Below, in pieces: positions 7,258 through 51,814 of a DNA stretch of 64,000 nucleotides. A program made the position numbers and the translations under genes. The DNA is from Patescibacteria group bacterium (lineage in GTDB: Bacteria > Patescibacteriota > Patescibacteriia > UBA1558 > UBA10009), in the NCBI GenBank assembly GCA_018817315.1, contig JAHITV010000035.1:22473-86472 (forward strand), written 5' to 3'. Under the pieces are notes generated by a model. That model did not search any database. It was not told the DNA's origin and was given only the letters and a program-made list of their open reading frames with translations. Numbering within the stretch: position 1 is the stretch's first letter; each line of letters begins with the position of its first letter.

Positions 7258-7399
7258 TCCCTGCTCCATAATAGTCAGCATTAATAACAAATTTTGTTAA
7301 ATTTACAATTTATACTATATCCCGTCCCGCCATTGGTATGGCGGGATAAGGCATAAATTGTAAGGATTATAAATTATTTATAATTTGAATCTTAAATTA

Positions 7400-27032: not shown

Positions 27033-29921
27033 ATGCCTACAAAACTTACTCCTAAAATTTATTCTCCTAGGGATTGGCGCCATGGTCGCACTAGCCGCTT
27101 TTTGTGTAGAACACATCATCAATCAAAAAGTCCTCGCCATTTAAAAAATCCCAAACGTCCTAAAGCTAAAAAAATCTTTCTGCTTTTTAAAAAATTTCTA
27201 CCCCATCTGATTTTTATCGTTTTTATAGGAATACTTTTTCTTATTGGAACCTTTGCTTGGTATTCACGTAGTTTACCCACCCCCGATAGATTACTTGCCC
27301 GTGATATTGCTCAAAGCACAAAAATATATGACCGCACTGGCGAACATTTATTATATGAAATTCACGGCGAACAAAAAAGAACTTTGGTGCCTTTAGAAAA
27401 AATACCAGATTATGCAATTAAAGCCACTTTAGCTTTAGAAGATCAACATTTTTATGAGCATCGTGGCTTTTCTTTATGGGGAACGTTTAGAGGGGTAATT
27501 TTAAGTTTCTTTAGAGGTAAAAGAGCTCAAGGTGGTTCTACTCTTACTCAACAACTGGTTAAAAACGCAATTTTAACCAGTGAAAGAAGTATCAAAAGAA
27601 AAATCAAAGAACTAATTTTATCGTACCAACTAGAAAGAAAATATACTAAAAATCAGATTTTGCAAATGTATTTTAATGAAATTCCTTACGGTTCTACTGC
27701 TTATGGTATTGAAGCGGCTAGCTATAATTATTTTAATAAAAGCACCAAAGAACTTACTATTGCTGAAGCGGCGCTGTTAGCAGCTTTACCCCAAAGACCC
27801 AGTTACCTTTCGCCTTATGGTAGCCATATTGATGAACTTTATGGCCGTCAGCATTACTGTTTAAGCCAAATGGCAAAACTGGGATATATTACAGCAGCAG
27901 AAGCTGAAGCTGCCAAAAATGAAAAAATTGTTTTTAAACAAAAGATTGAAGGTATAACCGCTCCTCATTTTGTCTTTTATGTTAAAGAATTATTAAGTGA
28001 AAAATATGGCGAGAAAATGATTGAGCAGGGTGGCTTAAAAATAATTTCCACGCTTGATTTTGAAATGCAAAAACAGGCCGAAAATATAATTATAGAACAG
28101 GCCGAAAAAAACCAAAAAAACTTTGCTGCTTCTAATGCTGCTTTGGTTTCTCTTGATATTTCAACAGGGCAAATTTTAGCCATGGTTGGCTCTAAAGATT
28201 TTTTTGATGAAACAATTGATGGCCAGGTTAATGTGGCTATTTCACCCAGACAACCGGGTAGTTCTTTTAAACCTATTGTTTATACGGCTGCCTGGCAAAA
28301 GGGTTATGTGCCAGAGACTGTTATTTATGATTTAGAAACGGTTTTTCCTTCACCCCAAAAAGACTATTTTCCTCACAATTATGATTTAGAGGAACGCGGA
28401 CCAGTTTCTCTCCGTCAAGCTTTAGCTGGATCTTTAAATATTCCTGCAGTTAAAATGATTTATCTTGTTGGTATTGACAATGTTTTGAATTTAGCAGAAA
28501 AAATCGGCTACACCACCTTAAAAGATCGCAGCCGCTTTGGTTTATCATTGGTTTTAGGAGGAGGGGAGGTTAAACTTTTAGAACACACCAATGCTTTTGC
28601 TGTTTTTGGCCGGGAAGGTAAATTTTTACCTACGGCTGCTATTTTAAAAATAGAGGATAATAATGGACGTATTATAGAAGAATTTCACACTCAAAGAGGA
28701 GAAAAAATCATGGAACCAGATATAGCCAGAATAACTAATGATGTTTTAAGCGATAATGACGCTCGTACTTTTATTTTTGGTGCTAATAATCACTTAACCC
28801 TAACTAACAGGCCAGTCACAGCTAAAACAGGCACCACTAATGACTATCGTGATGCCTGGACTATTGGTTATACACCTTCCTTGGCTACTGGTGTTTGGGT
28901 GGGTAATAATGATAATTCAGCCATGGAACGTGGGGCAGATGGAAGTGTGGTAGCAGCCCCTATCTGGCAAAAATTCATGAATGAAGTTTTAAAAGATAAA
29001 CCCGTAGAAACTTTTATTAAACCCAGTTATCAAATATCTAATAAACCCATGTTAGGCGGAGATGCCAGTGGTATAAAAGTAAAAATTGATAAAATATCAG
29101 GTCTGTTAGCCACCGAAGAAACTCCAACTCATTTAATAGAGGAAAGACTTTTTAAACAAGTTCATAATATTTTGCATTATTTAGATAAAGATGATCCACT
29201 CGGGCCTATTCCTCAAAATCCTGAAAATGATCCATATTACCAATATTGGGAAGAGTCAGTAACCAAATGGACAGAGGAACAAGGAATAACCAATGAAATT
29301 CCACCAAGCCAAGAAGATAATATTCACCGCACAGATGACAAACCCCAAGTTACTTTTGTTTCTCCTACTGATAATCAAACCATTTCCGAAACTCAATTTC
29401 ATCTAGAAGTTTCTGCTTCTGCCAGGCGAGGCATAACCAGGGTAGAATTTTATCTTGGTGATAATCTTTTAAACACTATTTATCAGGGTCCTTATATTAT
29501 TAATGTTGATATACCGCAAAATATTCTAAACGGCAATTACCAGCTTAAAACCAAAGCTTATGATGATATAGAAAATATGGGAGAAGTACAAATATCTATA
29601 AATTTACAAAGAGAAAATTATATAAATATTACTTGGGTGCAACCCAATATTAGCACTACTCTTGATCAAACATCTTTTCCTTATGACTTAATATTATATA
29701 TAGAAGAAATTGAACGGGTTAATAAAATTGATTTTTATTATCGTTTAGTTGATGATCAGCAATCTAATTGGCTTGGTTTTCTTGATAATGTTTATGACAA
29801 TCTTAATCAATTTACCTGGTCCCAACCCCCTGGCAATGGTATCTACAAAATTTATCCTTTAATTACTGATTATTTAGGAAAGGCTGTTACTGGACCAGAA
29901 ATAACAATAAGCATTGAATAA
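27033..29921 (+). CDS. penicillin-binding protein 1A (bifunctional transglycosylase/transpeptidase) with C-terminal Ig-like extension
   Basis: GT51 motifs ALALEDQHFYEHRGFS and GGSTLTQQLVKN, plus transpeptidase SSFKP and KTGTT. Start set at internal ATG MPTKLTPK just after the upstream stop. Confidence 0.9.
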   Translation: MPTKLTPKIYSPRDWRHGRTSRFLCRTHHQSKSPRHLKNPKRPKAKKIFLLFKKFLPHLIFIVFIGILFLIGTFAWYSRSLPTPDRLLARDIAQSTKIYDRTGEHLLYEIHGEQKRTLVPLEKIPDYAIKATLALEDQHFYEHRGFSLWGTFRGVILSFFRGKRAQGGSTLTQQLVKNAILTSERSIKRKIKELILSYQLERKYTKNQILQMYFNEIPYGSTAYGIEAASYNYFNKSTKELTIAEAALLAALPQRPSYLSPYGSHIDELYGRQHYCLSQMAKLGYITAAEAEAAKNEKIVFKQKIEGITAPHFVFYVKELLSEKYGEKMIEQGGLKIISTLDFEMQKQAENIIIEQAEKNQKNFAASNAALVSLDISTGQILAMVGSKDFFDETIDGQVNVAISPRQPGSSFKPIVYTAAWQKGYVPETVIYDLETVFPSPQKDYFPHNYDLEERGPVSLRQALAGSLNIPAVKMIYLVGIDNVLNLAEKIGYTTLKDRSRFGLSLVLGGGEVKLLEHTNAFAVFGREGKFLPTAAILKIEDNNGRIIEEFHTQRGEKIMEPDIARITNDVLSDNDARTFIFGANNHLTLTNRPVTAKTGTTNDYRDAWTIGYTPSLATGVWVGNNDNSAMERGADGSVVAAPIWQKFMNEVLKDKPVETFIKPSYQISNKPMLGGDASGIKVKIDKISGLLATEETPTHLIEERLFKQVHNILHYLDKDDPLGPIPQNPENDPYYQYWEESVTKWTEEQGITNEIPPSQEDNIHRTDDKPQVTFVSPTDNQTISETQFHLEVSASARRGITRVEFYLGDNLLNTIYQGPYIINVDIPQNILNGNYQLKTKAYDDIENMGEVQISINLQRENYINITWVQPNISTTLDQTSFPYDLILYIEEIERVNKIDFYYRLVDDQQSNWLGFLDNVYDNLNQFTWSQPPGNGIYKIYPLITDYLGKAVTGPEITISIE

Positions 29922-38416: not shown

Positions 38417-38493
38417 ATAAGAATTAGAATCTATAAATATTCCAACTAATTCAAATTGTTTTCAGAAACGTCAAATGTTCTCTGGAACGTTAA

Positions 38494-38520
38494 ATGTTCC
38501 ACGTGGAACATTTTTTGTTT
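38494..38520 (+). terminator. intrinsic terminator downstream of trxB (palindrome ATGTTCCACGTGGAACAT + T-run)
   Basis: Perfect 18-bp palindrome followed by TTTTTTGTTTATTTT. A degenerate copy lies 19 nt upstream at 38475-38490. Confidence 0.55.
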
Positions 38521-38985: not shown

Positions 38986-39084
38986 TAAATTAACTATAAA
39001 CTTTTAAAATATTGCTAAGATCTAGCAATATTTTAAATAAATCCAGCCCCTGCTTAGCGGGACTGGATAAAAATAAAATTATCA

Positions 39085-40356: not shown

Positions 40357-40380
40357 TTTAGAATTATTTGTTATTTAGAG

Positions 40381-40406
40381 ATGTTCCACATGGAACATTT
40401 TTGTTT
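40381..40406 (+). terminator. intrinsic terminator downstream of gdh (palindrome ATGTTCCACATGGAACAT + T-run)
   Basis: 18-bp palindrome, one centre change relative to the copy at 38494, followed by TTTTTGTTTTAT. Confidence 0.55.
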
Positions 40407-40418
40407 TATAATTAAATA

Positions 40419-41066
40419 ATGGAATATCCTAAATTCACTTTAGAAAAAAAGCTTTTTCAAGAAGGTTATCAAAATATTGTGAGTATTGATGAAGCAGGCA
40501 GGGGCGCTTTAGCGGGGCCATTAGTGGCAGCGGCAGTGATTTTAAATCAAAAGCAGACATCAATCATCAAAAGTATAAATAATTTAAAAATTAGAGAATC
40601 AAAGTTGTTAACTGAAAATTTAAGAGAAAAGTTATTTGATCAATTATCAGGCAAGTTAAACTGGTCTTTAGGTATAGTCAGCCATAAAGAAATTGATAGA
40701 ATAGGCATTACCAGAGCCAATATCTTAGTGTTTAAAAGAGCTTTAAAAAATTTTAAAAACGAAGTTGATTATTTGTTGCTGGATTATGTTTATGGATTTA
40801 AACATTCTAAACCATACGATTTAATCAAAAAGGGTGACCGAGAAATTTTATCAGTTGCTATAGCTTCAATCCTGGCAAAAGTTTCCCGGGATAGAATAAT
40901 GAGGCAATATCATCAAAAATTTCCTCAATATTTTTTTAATAACCATAAAGGTTATGGTACAAAATTACATCATAGTTGTTTAAAAAAACATGGAGTCTGT
41001 AAAATTCACAGATTAAGTTATGGACAAGTTAATATTTCTTATCAAGATGAAGAATCAACAAACTGA
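40419..41066 (+). CDS. rnhB: ribonuclease HII
   Basis: IVSIDEAGRGALAGPLVAAAVIL active-site DEAGRG motif. Confidence 0.9.
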   Translation: MEYPKFTLEKKLFQEGYQNIVSIDEAGRGALAGPLVAAAVILNQKQTSIIKSINNLKIRESKLLTENLREKLFDQLSGKLNWSLGIVSHKEIDRIGITRANILVFKRALKNFKNEVDYLLLDYVYGFKHSKPYDLIKKGDREILSVAIASILAKVSRDRIMRQYHQKFPQYFFNNHKGYGTKLHHSCLKKHGVCKIHRLSYGQVNISYQDEESTN

Positions 41067-42312: not shown

Positions 42313-42347
42313 GCATGTAGAGAATGCGATTTTGTTGCAGAAAGTTG

Positions 42348-42917
42348 TTAGTCGCCCTTTTGTTGATCGCGCAATGTTTTTAGGTGGGTGATCACGCCTT
42401 GTTTAGCAAGGTTAAACATCCAGATCATTGTTGAATCTTCGGTAAATATATGGCCATTGAACCTCGCGTTGTTGCAGTTGAAATCCCTAAACGTCGCTCC
42501 TTTGCAGTCGAAATCGTTACAGTGAAACTCCCCATTAAACGTCGCTTCGCTGCATTCGAAAATCCCATTAAACGTCGCTTTGTGGCAGTAAAACTCCCCA
42601 TTAAACGTCGCTTTTTTGCAGTTGAAATCCTCGAACGTCGCTCCGTGGCAGAAGAAGCTTTCATTAAACGTCGCTTCGCCGCAGTCGAAATTTTTTGTGA
42701 ATCGTGCTTTTTGGCAAAGGAAATGTCCTGAAACCTCCAGGTTACCACACGAGAAATCTTTCTCGAAGATGGTATTAGCCAACTCAATACCATGAGCAAA
42801 AGTCATCGAAGAAAGAGAGACATCCTTGGTAACAATCAAATTTTCTGGGAGCTGACCGTTATTCTTTTCCAGGAGTTCAAAGAACTCCTTAGCAGTTATT
42901 CGTTTACTTTCAGACAT
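42348..42917 (-). CDS. Cys/Phe-rich tandem-repeat protein (11-aa repeat xCxxATFNGEF), pentapeptide-repeat-like
   Basis: Start ATG at 42917 has an AGGAAA SD 8 nt upstream; the longer ORF-track start at 43034 is unsupported. Protein carries at least 7 repeats (FDCGEATFNES/FFCHGATFEDF/NCKKATFNGEF/YCHKATFNGIF/ECSEATFNGEF...). The region is visibly more GC-rich than its flanks. Confidence 0.5.
   Translation of the reverse strand: MSESKRITAKEFFELLEKNNGQLPENLIVTKDVSLSSMTFAHGIELANTIFEKDFSCGNLEVSGHFLCQKARFTKNFDCGEATFNESFFCHGATFEDFNCKKATFNGEFYCHKATFNGIFECSEATFNGEFHCNDFDCKGATFRDFNCNNARFNGHIFTEDSTMIWMFNLAKQGVITHLKTLRDQQKGD
42455..42720. repeat. tandem 33-bp imperfect DNA repeats (about 7 units) inside the repeat-protein gene
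   Basis: Repeated unit ccccattaaacgtcgcttNNNNgcagtNgaaatNN, e.g. at 42488, 42535, 42568, 42601, 42634 and 42667. Confidence 0.8.
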
Positions 42918-43072
42918 TGTTTTCCTACTTTCTTTTTTCTTTGTTTTTTTTGTTGCATTTGTCAAAAAATCGATTAATGTATAATAATAGCATATTTTAA
43001 TATTTTTGTCAAGTATTTTAGATATAAATAACAAAACTATTTATATATTTGGCTAATATTAGCTAAAAAATT

Positions 43073-50254: not shown

Positions 50255-50288
50255 CCACAATTCCATTTTAGAGTATTATAATGTTGTT

Positions 50289-50645
50289 ATGGATTTTATA
50301 TATAGACTCTTTAAGAAAAAACAGTTATCTCAAGAAGCATTTGATGCTTATTTTAATCGTTTGCCCGATATAATCCAAGTTGAATGGTTCAGGGACGGCA
50401 AGTTTATTATTGGCAAGATTAATGCTGAAGGAGAAGAATTTTTAACCCAAGCATTTTCAGCTGAAGAATTTGTTAAAATGGTTAATGATACTCTTTTAGC
50501 AGTTTATGAAATTCCGAAAGAGTATTTTGATGTTCTTTTAAAGGTAAAAAGGTTTGTACCAGATGAAGATCAATATAAAAGGTTGAATGATGTTGCTATT
50601 ATAAAATCGAATATTGATTTTGAAAAAAAGTTAGTGAAAGCTTAA
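50289..50645 (+). CDS. hypothetical protein
   Basis: 118-aa soluble ORF with no motifs recognised. Confidence 0.35.
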   Translation: MDFIYRLFKKKQLSQEAFDAYFNRLPDIIQVEWFRDGKFIIGKINAEGEEFLTQAFSAEEFVKMVNDTLLAVYEIPKEYFDVLLKVKRFVPDEDQYKRLNDVAIIKSNIDFEKKLVKA

Positions 50646-50848
50646 TTATTATTGTATATGGCTGGGTATGCGAATGTGAAGAGATGTATATACAGTAAAA
50701 TATTTCCTTTGGAACCGCCCTTATCCTGTTCCATTTAAACACAACGAAATTAATAAGTTTATTGTTAAAGAATTAGTAAAAAAATTAATAGATTCAGAGA
50801 TTTGTACAAAAAAAGAAATTGAAGAAAAGTTAAAATAAATTAAAAATT

Positions 50849-50872
50849 CGGGAGCAAAAATCCCGATTTTTT
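50849..50872 (+). terminator. intrinsic terminator
   Basis: cggga-gcaaaaa-tcccg followed by ATTTTTT. Confidence 0.5.
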
Positions 50873-50891
50873 GATATAATGAAAGTCAGGT

Positions 50892-50963
50892 ATCGGTAAT
50901 CAGTAATTAGTAACCAGGAAATTTTCTTCCTGATTACTAATTACTAATTACTGATTACTTTTT
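50892..50963 (+). promoter_or_regulatory. about 30-bp near-perfect hairpin (29 of 31 pairs) plus U-run in the nfo leader, containing (TAATTAC)3
   Basis: Paired by hand: 50892-50920 with 50927-50955, two mismatches and a 6-nt loop. TTTTT at 50959-63. The nfo ATG is at 50966, so the start region lies immediately 3' of the hairpin. A TATAAT sits at 50875-80. Confidence 0.5.
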
Positions 50964-50965
50964 CA

Positions 50966-51814
50966 ATGTTTTTTGGAGCTCATGTTTCAGCGGCCGGCGG
51001 AATTGATAAAGCGCCGGCAAATGCCCGCGCTATTGGTTGCGAGGTTTTTCAGATGTTTTCACGCCCGCCTCAAGGTGGTCCGGCTAAACTAATAACGCCG
51101 GCGCTGATTAAAAGTTTTAAATCAGCAATGATCAAAAATAAACAGGCCGAATGTTACATTCATACTCCTTATTATATTAATTTAGCTTCTACTAATAATC
51201 GCATTCGCTACGGTTCAATCAAAGTTATCCGTGAAGAATTAGAACGAGGCTCGCTTATTGGCGTAAAATATATGATGACGCATTTAGGCAGTGCCAATAA
51301 TTTACCAAGAAACAAAGCAATTAAAAAGGTGATTGAGGGAGTAAAAAAAATTTTGGAAGGATACAATAACTCAACCATGTTTTTAATAGAAAATTCCGCA
51401 GGTAGCGGGAATATAATCGGCGATCAATTTGAAGAAATAAGAGCGATTATCAAGGGGGTCCCTCGGCAAGCTCGGGACAGACTTGCAGTCTGTTTTGATA
51501 CCTGTCATGCTTTTTCTTCCAATTATGATTTAAGAAATAAAAAAGCGATTGATCAAACCTTAAAGAAATTTAATCAGCTTATTGGTTTGGATAAATTAAA
51601 GTTAATCCATATTAATGATTCTAAAACTGATTTAGGTTCTCACATTGATCGTCATGAGCACATTGGTTTAGGTAAAATTGGCCTTAAAGGATTTAAAGAA
51701 TTAATCAATCATCCAAAATTAAAAAAGACTAACATGATTTTAGAAACACCAATTGATGGACGCGGTGGGCAGGAAGATGATTTAAAAAAGATTAAAAAAT
51801 TAAGAAGAGCTTAA
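50966..51814 (+). CDS. nfo: deoxyribonuclease IV (endonuclease IV)
   Basis: MFFGAHVSAAGG N-terminus. Metal-binding His/Glu/Asp pattern of the Nfo TIM barrel. 282 aa. Confidence 0.9.
   Translation: MFFGAHVSAAGGIDKAPANARAIGCEVFQMFSRPPQGGPAKLITPALIKSFKSAMIKNKQAECYIHTPYYINLASTNNRIRYGSIKVIREELERGSLIGVKYMMTHLGSANNLPRNKAIKKVIEGVKKILEGYNNSTMFLIENSAGSGNIIGDQFEEIRAIIKGVPRQARDRLAVCFDTCHAFSSNYDLRNKKAIDQTLKKFNQLIGLDKLKLIHINDSKTDLGSHIDRHEHIGLGKIGLKGFKELINHPKLKKTNMILETPIDGRGGQEDDLKKIKKLRRA

Follow-up and report, generated by a model that had tools for sequence, protein, structure and literature searches.

A heptamer-built hairpin between the promoter and the start codon of nfo in a Patescibacteria genome

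Why should a nearly perfect palindrome made of 7-nt repeats fill the space between a promoter and the start codon of a housekeeping repair gene, and what could it do there? The gene is nfo, and it lies in a stretch of 64,000 nt from a Patescibacteria bacterium, which we call the window. A first-pass annotation had described a terminator, a -10 box and a long hairpin directly before nfo, and had supposed that so stable a structure would block initiation unless it were melted or processed; an attenuator, an RNA thermometer, a processing site and an arrangement for leaderless translation were named as possible roles. The element is a repeat-built 5'-UTR hairpin, a kind already known. Its features, all on the forward strand, are as follows.

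50848-50866 (stem) and 50867-50872 (T6): intrinsic terminator of the upstream unit, stem plus T-run, from the consensus scan
50872-50880: extended -10 element TGATATAAT (TG at 50872-73, TATAAT at 50875-80), read from the sequence and invariant in relatives
50881-50885: GAAAG, outer 5' segment of the palindrome, pairing with 50960-50964 in the fold of 50881-50965
50887-50888: inferred transcription start, 6-7 nt past the -10 box, from the TATAAT-N6-ATG spacing of leaderless genes
50892-50920: 5' arm, with GTAATCA (50896-902), GTAATTA (50903-09) and GTAACCA (50910-16), then GGAA; from the inverted-repeat search, the fold and TRF
50921-50926: loop ATTTTC, 6 nt, from the fold
50927-50959: 3' arm, with TTCC, then TGATTAC (50931-37), TAATTAC (50938-44), TAATTAC (50945-51) and TGATTAC (50952-58); from the inverted-repeat search and TRF
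50959-50965: U/T-run TTTTT (50959-63) followed by CA; it separates the stem from the AUG as a single-stranded stretch and may be a terminator tail
50966-51814: nfo (endonuclease IV, 282 aa), from comparison with homologues

The core arms of the hairpin (50892-50920 and 50927-50955) are 29 nt each, and 27 of the 29 positions are paired, by 26 Watson-Crick pairs and one G-U pair, with two C-A mismatches on the sense strand; the earlier hand count of 29 base pairs out of 31 is untenable for arms of this length. The three exact copies of TAATTAC that had been read in the 3' arm come down to two, together with two TGATTAC variants, but the heptamer repeat itself is real: TRF gives the 3' arm a period of 7, 3.9 copies and a 95% match, and finds period-7 tracts at 50892-50917 and 50933-50959, downstream of the conserved -10 box. 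With heptamers in both arms, the stem can also pair out of register by 7 nt. The main stem ends 10 nt from the ATG, or 6 nt from it with two more pairs (50888-89 with 50958-59), not 3 nt as first reported, and the U-run past the hairpin is present as T5 at 50959-63. As DNA, the palindrome takes up exactly the interval that begins after the -10 box and stops 2 nt short of the nfo ATG (50881-50964), and its outer GAAAG bases (50881-85) probably lie upstream of the transcription start.

Calculation of the folding energy bore out the extreme stability of the hairpin. The minimum free energy of the RNA is -34.5 kcal/mol (z = -9.45), a stability that none of 200 shuffled sequences equalled, and the DNA fold reaches -17.4 kcal/mol (z = -7.2). 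We scanned the whole 64-kb window in 90-nt windows with a step of 20 nt, and the most stable fold of all is at this site, at -37.1 kcal/mol against a mean of -12.4 (sd 5.0); it outranks the tRNA genes in fold stability even though it contains only 29% G+C. The inverted repeat is the longest short-range one in the window except for one low-identity palindrome. A search for further copies of the hairpin sequence in the window, as expected of a dispersed repeat, MITE or REP, found none, the matches at 29860, 31126 and 34799 being single chance hits inside coding regions. With Rfam at the gathering score, tRNAs alone pass in the window, and no riboswitch or leader family does; at a permissive threshold the hairpin region is matched by generic miRNA-precursor hairpin models alone, far below threshold. 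The heptads make a poor match to degenerate copies of the -10 box or to complements of the 16S rRNA tail, and we rejected both readings; the window contains no rRNA gene.

The start of nfo is well placed. Its product begins MFFGAHVSAAGG, with M1, G4 and H6 invariant across 25 homologues, which upholds the ATG at 50966, and no alternative in-frame start lies upstream of it before the TAA at 50945. Judged by its Nfo homologues, the contig belongs in Patescibacteria, near Komeilibacteria and Kerfeldbacteria. The gene is at the head of a cluster whose other members, on the same strand, encode HD-domain, MBL-fold and metallophosphoesterase proteins. In most close relatives the trigger factor gene (tig) immediately precedes nfo, and in the window the two are separated by an insert of about 590 bp, which consists of a 118-aa ORF, without a Pfam match, and a start-less ORF fragment. 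DUF4325 ORFs stand upstream of nfo in two relatives (L167 and L170) and are unrelated to the 118-aa ORF of the window. We found no conserved neighboring regulator near nfo, and no HutP- or TRAP-like gene nearby. A replication origin, terminus or dif site at about 50.9 kb is unlikely, as the GC skew does not flip there.

Both the terminator and the -10 box noted upstream of nfo in the first pass are present, the former by the scan and the latter as a motif conserved in relatives. The terminator stem has 6 bp, four of them G-C pairs, and is scored as a terminator on both strands. Its T-run merges into the nfo promoter, so that the TG of the -10 element overlaps the end of the run; inspection of the sequence shows no recognizable -35 box. 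The motif TTTTTTG[GA]TATAAT is invariant across nine aligned relatives, with a terminator preceding the module in each, and the same arrangement of terminator, T-run and TATAAT is found at other genes of the 64-kb window. Because leaderless genes here and in relatives show the layout TATAAT-N6-ATG (in the window, the ORF at 50289, with its layout at 50277-50291, and the gene at 40419; in relatives, the nfo loci L168 and L092), we place the transcription start at about 50887-88. At the window's own nfo the -10 box is 85 nt away from the ATG, so the layout there is not the leaderless one. Neither the terminator and promoter scan nor inspection of 50881-50965 showed an internal promoter from which nfo would be transcribed without a leader, and the hairpin contains no usable -10 box.

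The lack of a free Shine-Dalgarno (SD) sequence at nfo, noted in the first pass, is correct as an observation, but it is nothing special. A core of GGAG, GAGG or AGGA occurs upstream of just 3 of 54 window genes, as against 15 of 130 internal in-frame ATGs (11.5%). Because SD cores are rarer at the starts of window genes than at internal ATGs, their absence at nfo is not gene-specific: the missing SD is a property of the genome, not of nfo. A subgroup of Parcubacteria is known in which the 16S rRNA has no anti-SD motif (PMC9297842). We also folded the predicted nfo transcript, from 50888 through 60 nt of coding sequence, at 10-70 C. Across this range the AUG is predicted to be unpaired with a probability of 0.89-0.94 and positions -10 to -1 with 0.61-0.77, while the hairpin arms are unpaired with only 0.07-0.18. 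The mean accessibility of nfo from -12 to +12 is 0.59, which ranks 26th of 36 genes and lies above the median of the window. The start codon that the hairpin was thought to block is thus predicted to be open, and on this model the hairpin is not a translational lock in an SD-less and often leaderless setting.

To see how the leader varies, we traced 12 relatives with Nfo proteins 69-75% identical to that of the window, from the closest proteins to their contigs. Every lineage in which nfo has kept a promoter of its own has the module of terminator and -10 box. The stretch between the conserved -10 module and the nfo ATG differs from lineage to lineage, as listed here by locus.

L168: ATG 6 nt after the -10 box (leaderless); fold not applicable
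L166: ATG 8 nt after the -10 box (leaderless); fold not applicable
L092: -10 box 6 nt from the nfo ATG (leaderless)
L164 and L165: leader of 17 nt; fold not applicable
L081 and L167: 45 nt with five direct heptamers, no fold and no 3' arm (z = -0.6 and +0.4)
L161: 97 nt, GATACAC-type heptamers mirrored into a hairpin (z = -6.2)
L171: 72 nt, GATACAC-type heptamers as in L161 (z = -3.7 to -4.1)
L163: 68 nt, 9-mers TTAAGTCCN, mirrored (z = -5.3)
L172: 68 nt, AGAGCAA-type heptamers, a short hairpin and a U-run (z = -2.8)
L169: 100 nt, a 16-bp hairpin (z = -3.7 to -4.1)
L173: 144 nt, a long imperfect hairpin (z = -1.6 to -1.9)
L170: promoter absent, nfo fused to the upstream DUF4325 gene; fold not applicable

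Conservation of the hairpin, on which the first pass had made its case depend, thus has two sides. The sequence itself is not kept, yet 6 of 11 relative lineages have a hairpin in the same position; its sequences are unrelated and consist for the most part of 7- or 9-nt repeats, and it is weaker in L172 and L173. Since some relatives have no hairpin, the element is dispensable. The idea of leaderless translation fares in a similar way, failing for the 85-nt spacing at the window's own nfo but holding in L168 and L166, where the same promoter stands 6-8 nt from the ATG.

The direct array shared by L081 and L167 (GTAATCA, GTAACTG, GTGACTG, GTAATTA, GTAAATA) is homologous to the 5' arm of the window. 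In L168, GTAAnnn heptamers lie upstream of the terminator, outside the transcribed leader. Of 169 loci, only the window, L081, L167 and L168 have the 14-nt pattern TAANNAGTAANNAG, apart from one chance hit. Direct heptamers without a 3' arm, as in L081 and L167, fit an order in which arrays came first and inversion later. These two loci represent the same strain save for one recombined patch of 108 nt inside nfo, and show no change in repeat copy number; being so nearly identical, they carry no information on constraint or repeat instability.

We tentatively favor the possibility that the element is a young, heptamer-built insertion into the leader, which acts as a 5'-terminal dsRNA element and tunes the level of nfo mRNA. 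As to the transcription start, the evolutionary path and the effects on stability and processing, we infer the following. Transcription from the extended -10 promoter, with its start at about 50887-88, would yield an nfo leader of about 78 nt, whose first 70 nt or so would form a single stem-loop of 27-29 bp at the 5' terminus and leave the AUG and its U-rich flanks single-stranded. The gene would ancestrally have been leaderless, or have had a short leader, behind its terminator-adjacent extended -10 promoter. The short spacer from the -10 box to the ATG would then have grown by slippage of 7-nt units, a state that L081 may represent, and in the lineage of the window the array would have been copied in inverted orientation, giving a palindrome across the whole leader. 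The hairpin would tune the amount of nfo mRNA after initiation; intact, it could shield the 5' end from 5'-end-dependent decay, and a 27-bp stem would in principle be long enough to serve as a substrate of RNase III. The U5 tract may contribute some leaky termination. No RNase III (rnc) signature was found within the 64-kb window, a result that concerns the window only and says nothing about the rest of the genome.

Two kinds of studied leader bear on this reading. Stabilizing stem-loops at the 5' terminus are found in the leaders of E. coli ompA and of B. subtilis ermC and aprE; they have about 5-15 bp, are conserved in sequence and are not built from repeats. The nfo hairpin would resemble them in starting within 0-5 nt of the predicted mRNA 5' end and in leaving the initiation region free, but its 27-bp, repeat-built stem, which begins at 50888 or 50892, is unlike their short and conserved stems. 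By analogy of architecture, the closest studied parallel is the leader of hmw1A in H. influenzae, whose (AUCUUUC)n 5'-UTR repeats form one arm of a long hairpin that acts in cis on expression; RNase III cleaves it, which alters expression and the dynamics of the repeats (PMC12721329). This parallel lends the earlier suggestion of a processing site some plausibility. In hmw1A and hmw2A, as in nfo with its inferred start, 7-nt tandem repeats lie between promoter and start codon, in the 5'-UTR, and form an arm of a long and stable hairpin. The two differ in their repeats: one arm of hmw1A consists of at least 11 perfect repeats and pairs with a G-rich arm that is not repetitive, whereas nfo has three to four imperfect units per arm in a true palindrome, too few for a highly mutable SSR of the hmw1A kind. 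Moreover, the hmw1A hairpin is 54-175 nt from the ATG, while that of nfo ends 6-10 nt from the AUG. Phase variation by copy number is proven for hmw1A, in a host that uses SD sequences; for nfo, a housekeeping repair gene of an SD-less organism, no change in copy number is seen between L081 and L167.

Somewhat unlikely, in our estimate, is an account without any function, in which spacers grow by slippage and fold-back duplication and the palindrome is a neutral by-product of mutation; such filler would be tolerated, since SD-independent initiation would need merely an open, AU-rich start region. The start site unaffected by the hairpin agrees with this, as do the sequences at the site, which are unrelated between lineages and absent in some. 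So does the folding of the two strands: the sense strand folds better in 7 of 12 hairpins and the antisense strand in 5 of 12, and with no strand bias, nothing shows selection on the sense RNA rather than a symmetric DNA process. The palindrome also ignores the inferred transcript boundary: in the window, L161 and L171 it reaches past that boundary on the upstream side, which points to an origin at the DNA level. Tandem arrays with periods of 7, 10, 11, 19 and 22 fill most of the longer intergenic spacers of relatives. On the other hand, in genomes this compact the recurrence of 70-145 nt of filler at one gene calls for explanation, and the near-perfect arms (27/29) imply either a recent origin or maintenance.

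The distribution of the arrays also speaks against pure filler. With one array criterion applied alike to all genes in the collected Patescibacteria loci and to the whole window, 7 of the 45 nfo upstream regions carry a strong repeat array, as do 5 of the 182 regions before other genes (Fisher p = 0.003). The period is 7 in 12 of the 14 strong arrays, whereas only 0.02% of random AT-rich 56-mers satisfy the criterion at lag 7. In 71 distinct 70-mers from upstream of Patescibacteria nfo genes, self-similarity is raised at lag 7 (z = 6.0) and lag 14 (z = 5.0), and these are the only raised lags in the spectrum, lag 1 aside; at 95 archaeal and other bacterial (non-CPR) nfo loci there is no lag-7 signal (z = -2.1). 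The potential for slipped-strand events that the first-pass annotation saw in the heptamers thus has a wider basis, as 7-nt arrays recur upstream of nfo across Patescibacteria. A search for four successive GTAANNN units in viral contigs returned at least 120 stretches and no interpretable link.

Arrays of this kind also stand before other genes. In L171, the HD gene is preceded by seven direct GTAAYNG heptamers that reach its ATG; in L122, ACAACTA/TCGTAAG heptamers form a hairpin 8 nt before the gene for an RRM protein; and in L161, units of 10-11 nt form a hairpin of -64.5 kcal/mol that ends about 12 nt before Vut_1, with a counterpart in L163. Repeat-built hairpins before Vut_1 and the RRM gene mean that any function is not specific to nfo. 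Unit sequences vary between genomes and inside one (in L171, GAYACAC at nfo and GTAAYNG at the HD gene), which argues against one sequence-specific binding protein. A broader proposition is that 7-nt arrays of variable unit sequence, direct or mirrored into hairpins and abutting start codons, are a feature of SD-less Patescibacteria as a clade. We judge this unlikely as it stands. If it were true, it would imply either a heptad-specific DNA process, with a defined 7-bp duplication followed by fold-back inversion, or a signal independent of sequence and used in SD-independent expression, such as a helix, or repeats in phase, by which ribosomes or RNA-processing enzymes are brought to the first AUG that is open.

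The leader could instead be a terminator or attenuator, such that promoter, hairpin and U-run make a short RNA, most transcripts end at about 50960-65 and nfo is expressed by read-through, possibly aided by a factor that binds the repeated motifs of the 5' arm. The stem is indeed followed by UUUUU and then by CA-AUG-UUUUUU, the L172 hairpin is likewise followed by CGAUUUUUGUUUU before the nfo ATG, and long AT-rich stems stand at gene ends in this genome, as at 38995-39040. NAG triplets at 7-nt spacing in the 5' arm presumably recall antiterminator sites of the HutP type, but no HutP- or TRAP-like gene is nearby, and the repeat sequences differ among relatives. Known intrinsic terminators and attenuators share with nfo a leader stem-loop and a U-run. 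The terminators called by the scan here have 5-13 pairs, at least three of them G-C, and an adjoining T-run, whereas the nfo stem, with 27 bp and an AU-rich base, is not called. Nor does the leader (50888-50965) contain anything besides the hairpin, such as an alternative antiterminator fold or a sensor domain. The U-tract is not kept in relatives: it is clear in the window and L172 only, missing in L163, L169 and L173, and weak in L161 and L171. We regard a leaky leader terminator of this kind as unlikely but, like the neutral account, as a serious rival.

A DNA operator is a very improbable explanation. By analogy with known operators, the 7-bp heptads past the -10 box would bind a cooperative repressor that blocks the nfo promoter. 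The omega/ParB protein of pSM19035, a ribbon-helix-helix protein, binds heptad arrays cooperatively, in direct or inverted orientation, with one consensus for one protein. Like omega operators and parS, the nfo leader has contiguous 7-bp direct or inverted units by a promoter, and operators of the omega type would tolerate both the direct-only heptads of L081 and L167 and the inverted ones of the window. The absence of strand bias in folding would fit a DNA site, as would the GTAAnnn heptads that L168 has beyond the transcribed leader and L171 before a gene other than nfo. Unlike the units bound by omega, however, heptads of the nfo type vary in sequence between genomes and genes, being wholly different among relatives and even inside L171, and no cognate protein is evident: no conserved candidate regulator lies nearby, where the window has the 118-aa ORF, for which Pfam gives no hit, and where in relatives there is DUF4325 or nothing. 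In addition, L163 has 9-mers and other spacers have 10-11-mers.

Occlusion of the start site until the hairpin melts and admits the 30S subunit, including an RNA thermometer, can be dismissed as scarcely credible: the 3' end of the stem is just 6-10 nt from the AUG, but we rejected both readings because the AUG and its flanks are predicted to be open and the arms to stay at least 82% paired at all temperatures folded (10-70 C), there is no SD to mask in a genome that uses none, and a stem of -34.5 kcal/mol far exceeds the stability of thermosensor helices. REP and BIME palindromes are likewise stable intergenic hairpins able to affect mRNA stability; REPs form dispersed families of many copies, while the nfo hairpin is unique in the 64-kb window and different in every relative.

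Patescibacteria that lack the anti-SD/SD interaction are uncultured organisms. The nfo locus provides a natural series on one promoter, from leaderless starts through direct heptamers to heptamer hairpins, and is well suited to questions about SD-independent initiation. Even if the palindrome were neutral filler, it would still record an unusual way for reduced genomes to mutate, by heptamer slippage and subsequent inversion. The most interesting lead is the period-7 signal specific to upstream regions of Patescibacteria, which makes a prediction that can be checked genome-wide and links these genomes to hmw1A, the sole heptamer 5'-UTR hairpin to have been studied, where RNA folding and RNase III feed back on the instability of the repeats.

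Heptamer arrays of the kind found in the nfo leader of the window, whose hairpin 5' arm is built of GTAATCA, GTAATTA and GTAACCA units, also occur at other Patescibacteria loci. At positions 1877-1948 of locus L171, seven direct GTAAYNG heptamers are followed by AGAATWA units that reach the ATG of an HD-domain gene. This array draws on the same unit family as the nfo leader of the window but, unlike that leader, lacks an inverted arm and does not fold (z = -0.5). Upstream of a gene for an RRM-type RNA-binding protein (L122, 1385-1462), the leader comprises five copies of ACAACTA followed by three of TCGTAAG, which form a G-U-rich hairpin whose end is 8 nt upstream of the ATG. A further heptamer array, (CGTAACA)x4.4, lies immediately 3' of an nfo stop codon at a contig end (L170, 1513-1544).

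At two loci (L161, 4600-4722; L163, 4600-4710), the spacer that separates the M50B peptidase gene from Vut_1 holds very stable hairpins made of tandem units of approximately 10-11 nt, with the Vut_1 ATG about 8-12 nt downstream of the hairpin ends. The L161 hairpin has a folding energy of -64.5 kcal/mol (z = -9.7).

Two otherwise near-identical strains, represented by loci L081 and L167 (4 differences in approximately 2,100 nt), differ at 24 positions inside a 108-nt patch of nfo (L081, 1165-1272), which looks like a short recombination tract.

Tandem DNA repeats of 33/63 nt at 42525-42691 of the window fall within the following feature:

42347-42920, minus strand, ORF containing the tandem repeats

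The repeats are thus neither a CRISPR array nor non-coding. In our translation by hand, a Cys-x-x-Ala-Thr-Phe motif recurs in the product, which by its sequence looks pentapeptide-repeat-like.

Compared with most relatives, where the trigger factor gene tig directly precedes nfo, the window carries an insert of approximately 590 bp (50255-50838) that contains two open frames:

50289-50645, leaderless ORF of 118 aa
50680-50838, open frame of 52 codons with no start codon

The 118-aa ORF has no Pfam match, and the start-less frame is probably a gene remnant.

A near-identical palindrome, ATGTTCCAC(G/A)TGGAACAT, occurs in two terminators of the window (38492-38513, preceded by 19-nt direct repeats at 38451-38509, and 40376-40403), followed in each by a T-run and then a TATAAT box. 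Separately, a long AT-rich hairpin at 7303-7363, with 22-nt arms that are 86% complementary (-31.7 kcal/mol, folded as 90 nt), lies 3' of a gene end and just upstream of the TATAAT box of the next gene.

Shine-Dalgarno usage is essentially absent from this genome (3 of the 54 genes, counting all those in the window). Several genes of the window have the layout TATAAT-N6-ATG (for example, at 50277-50291 and 40376-40421), often directly 3' of a terminator T-run, and this spacing indicates that they are leaderless.
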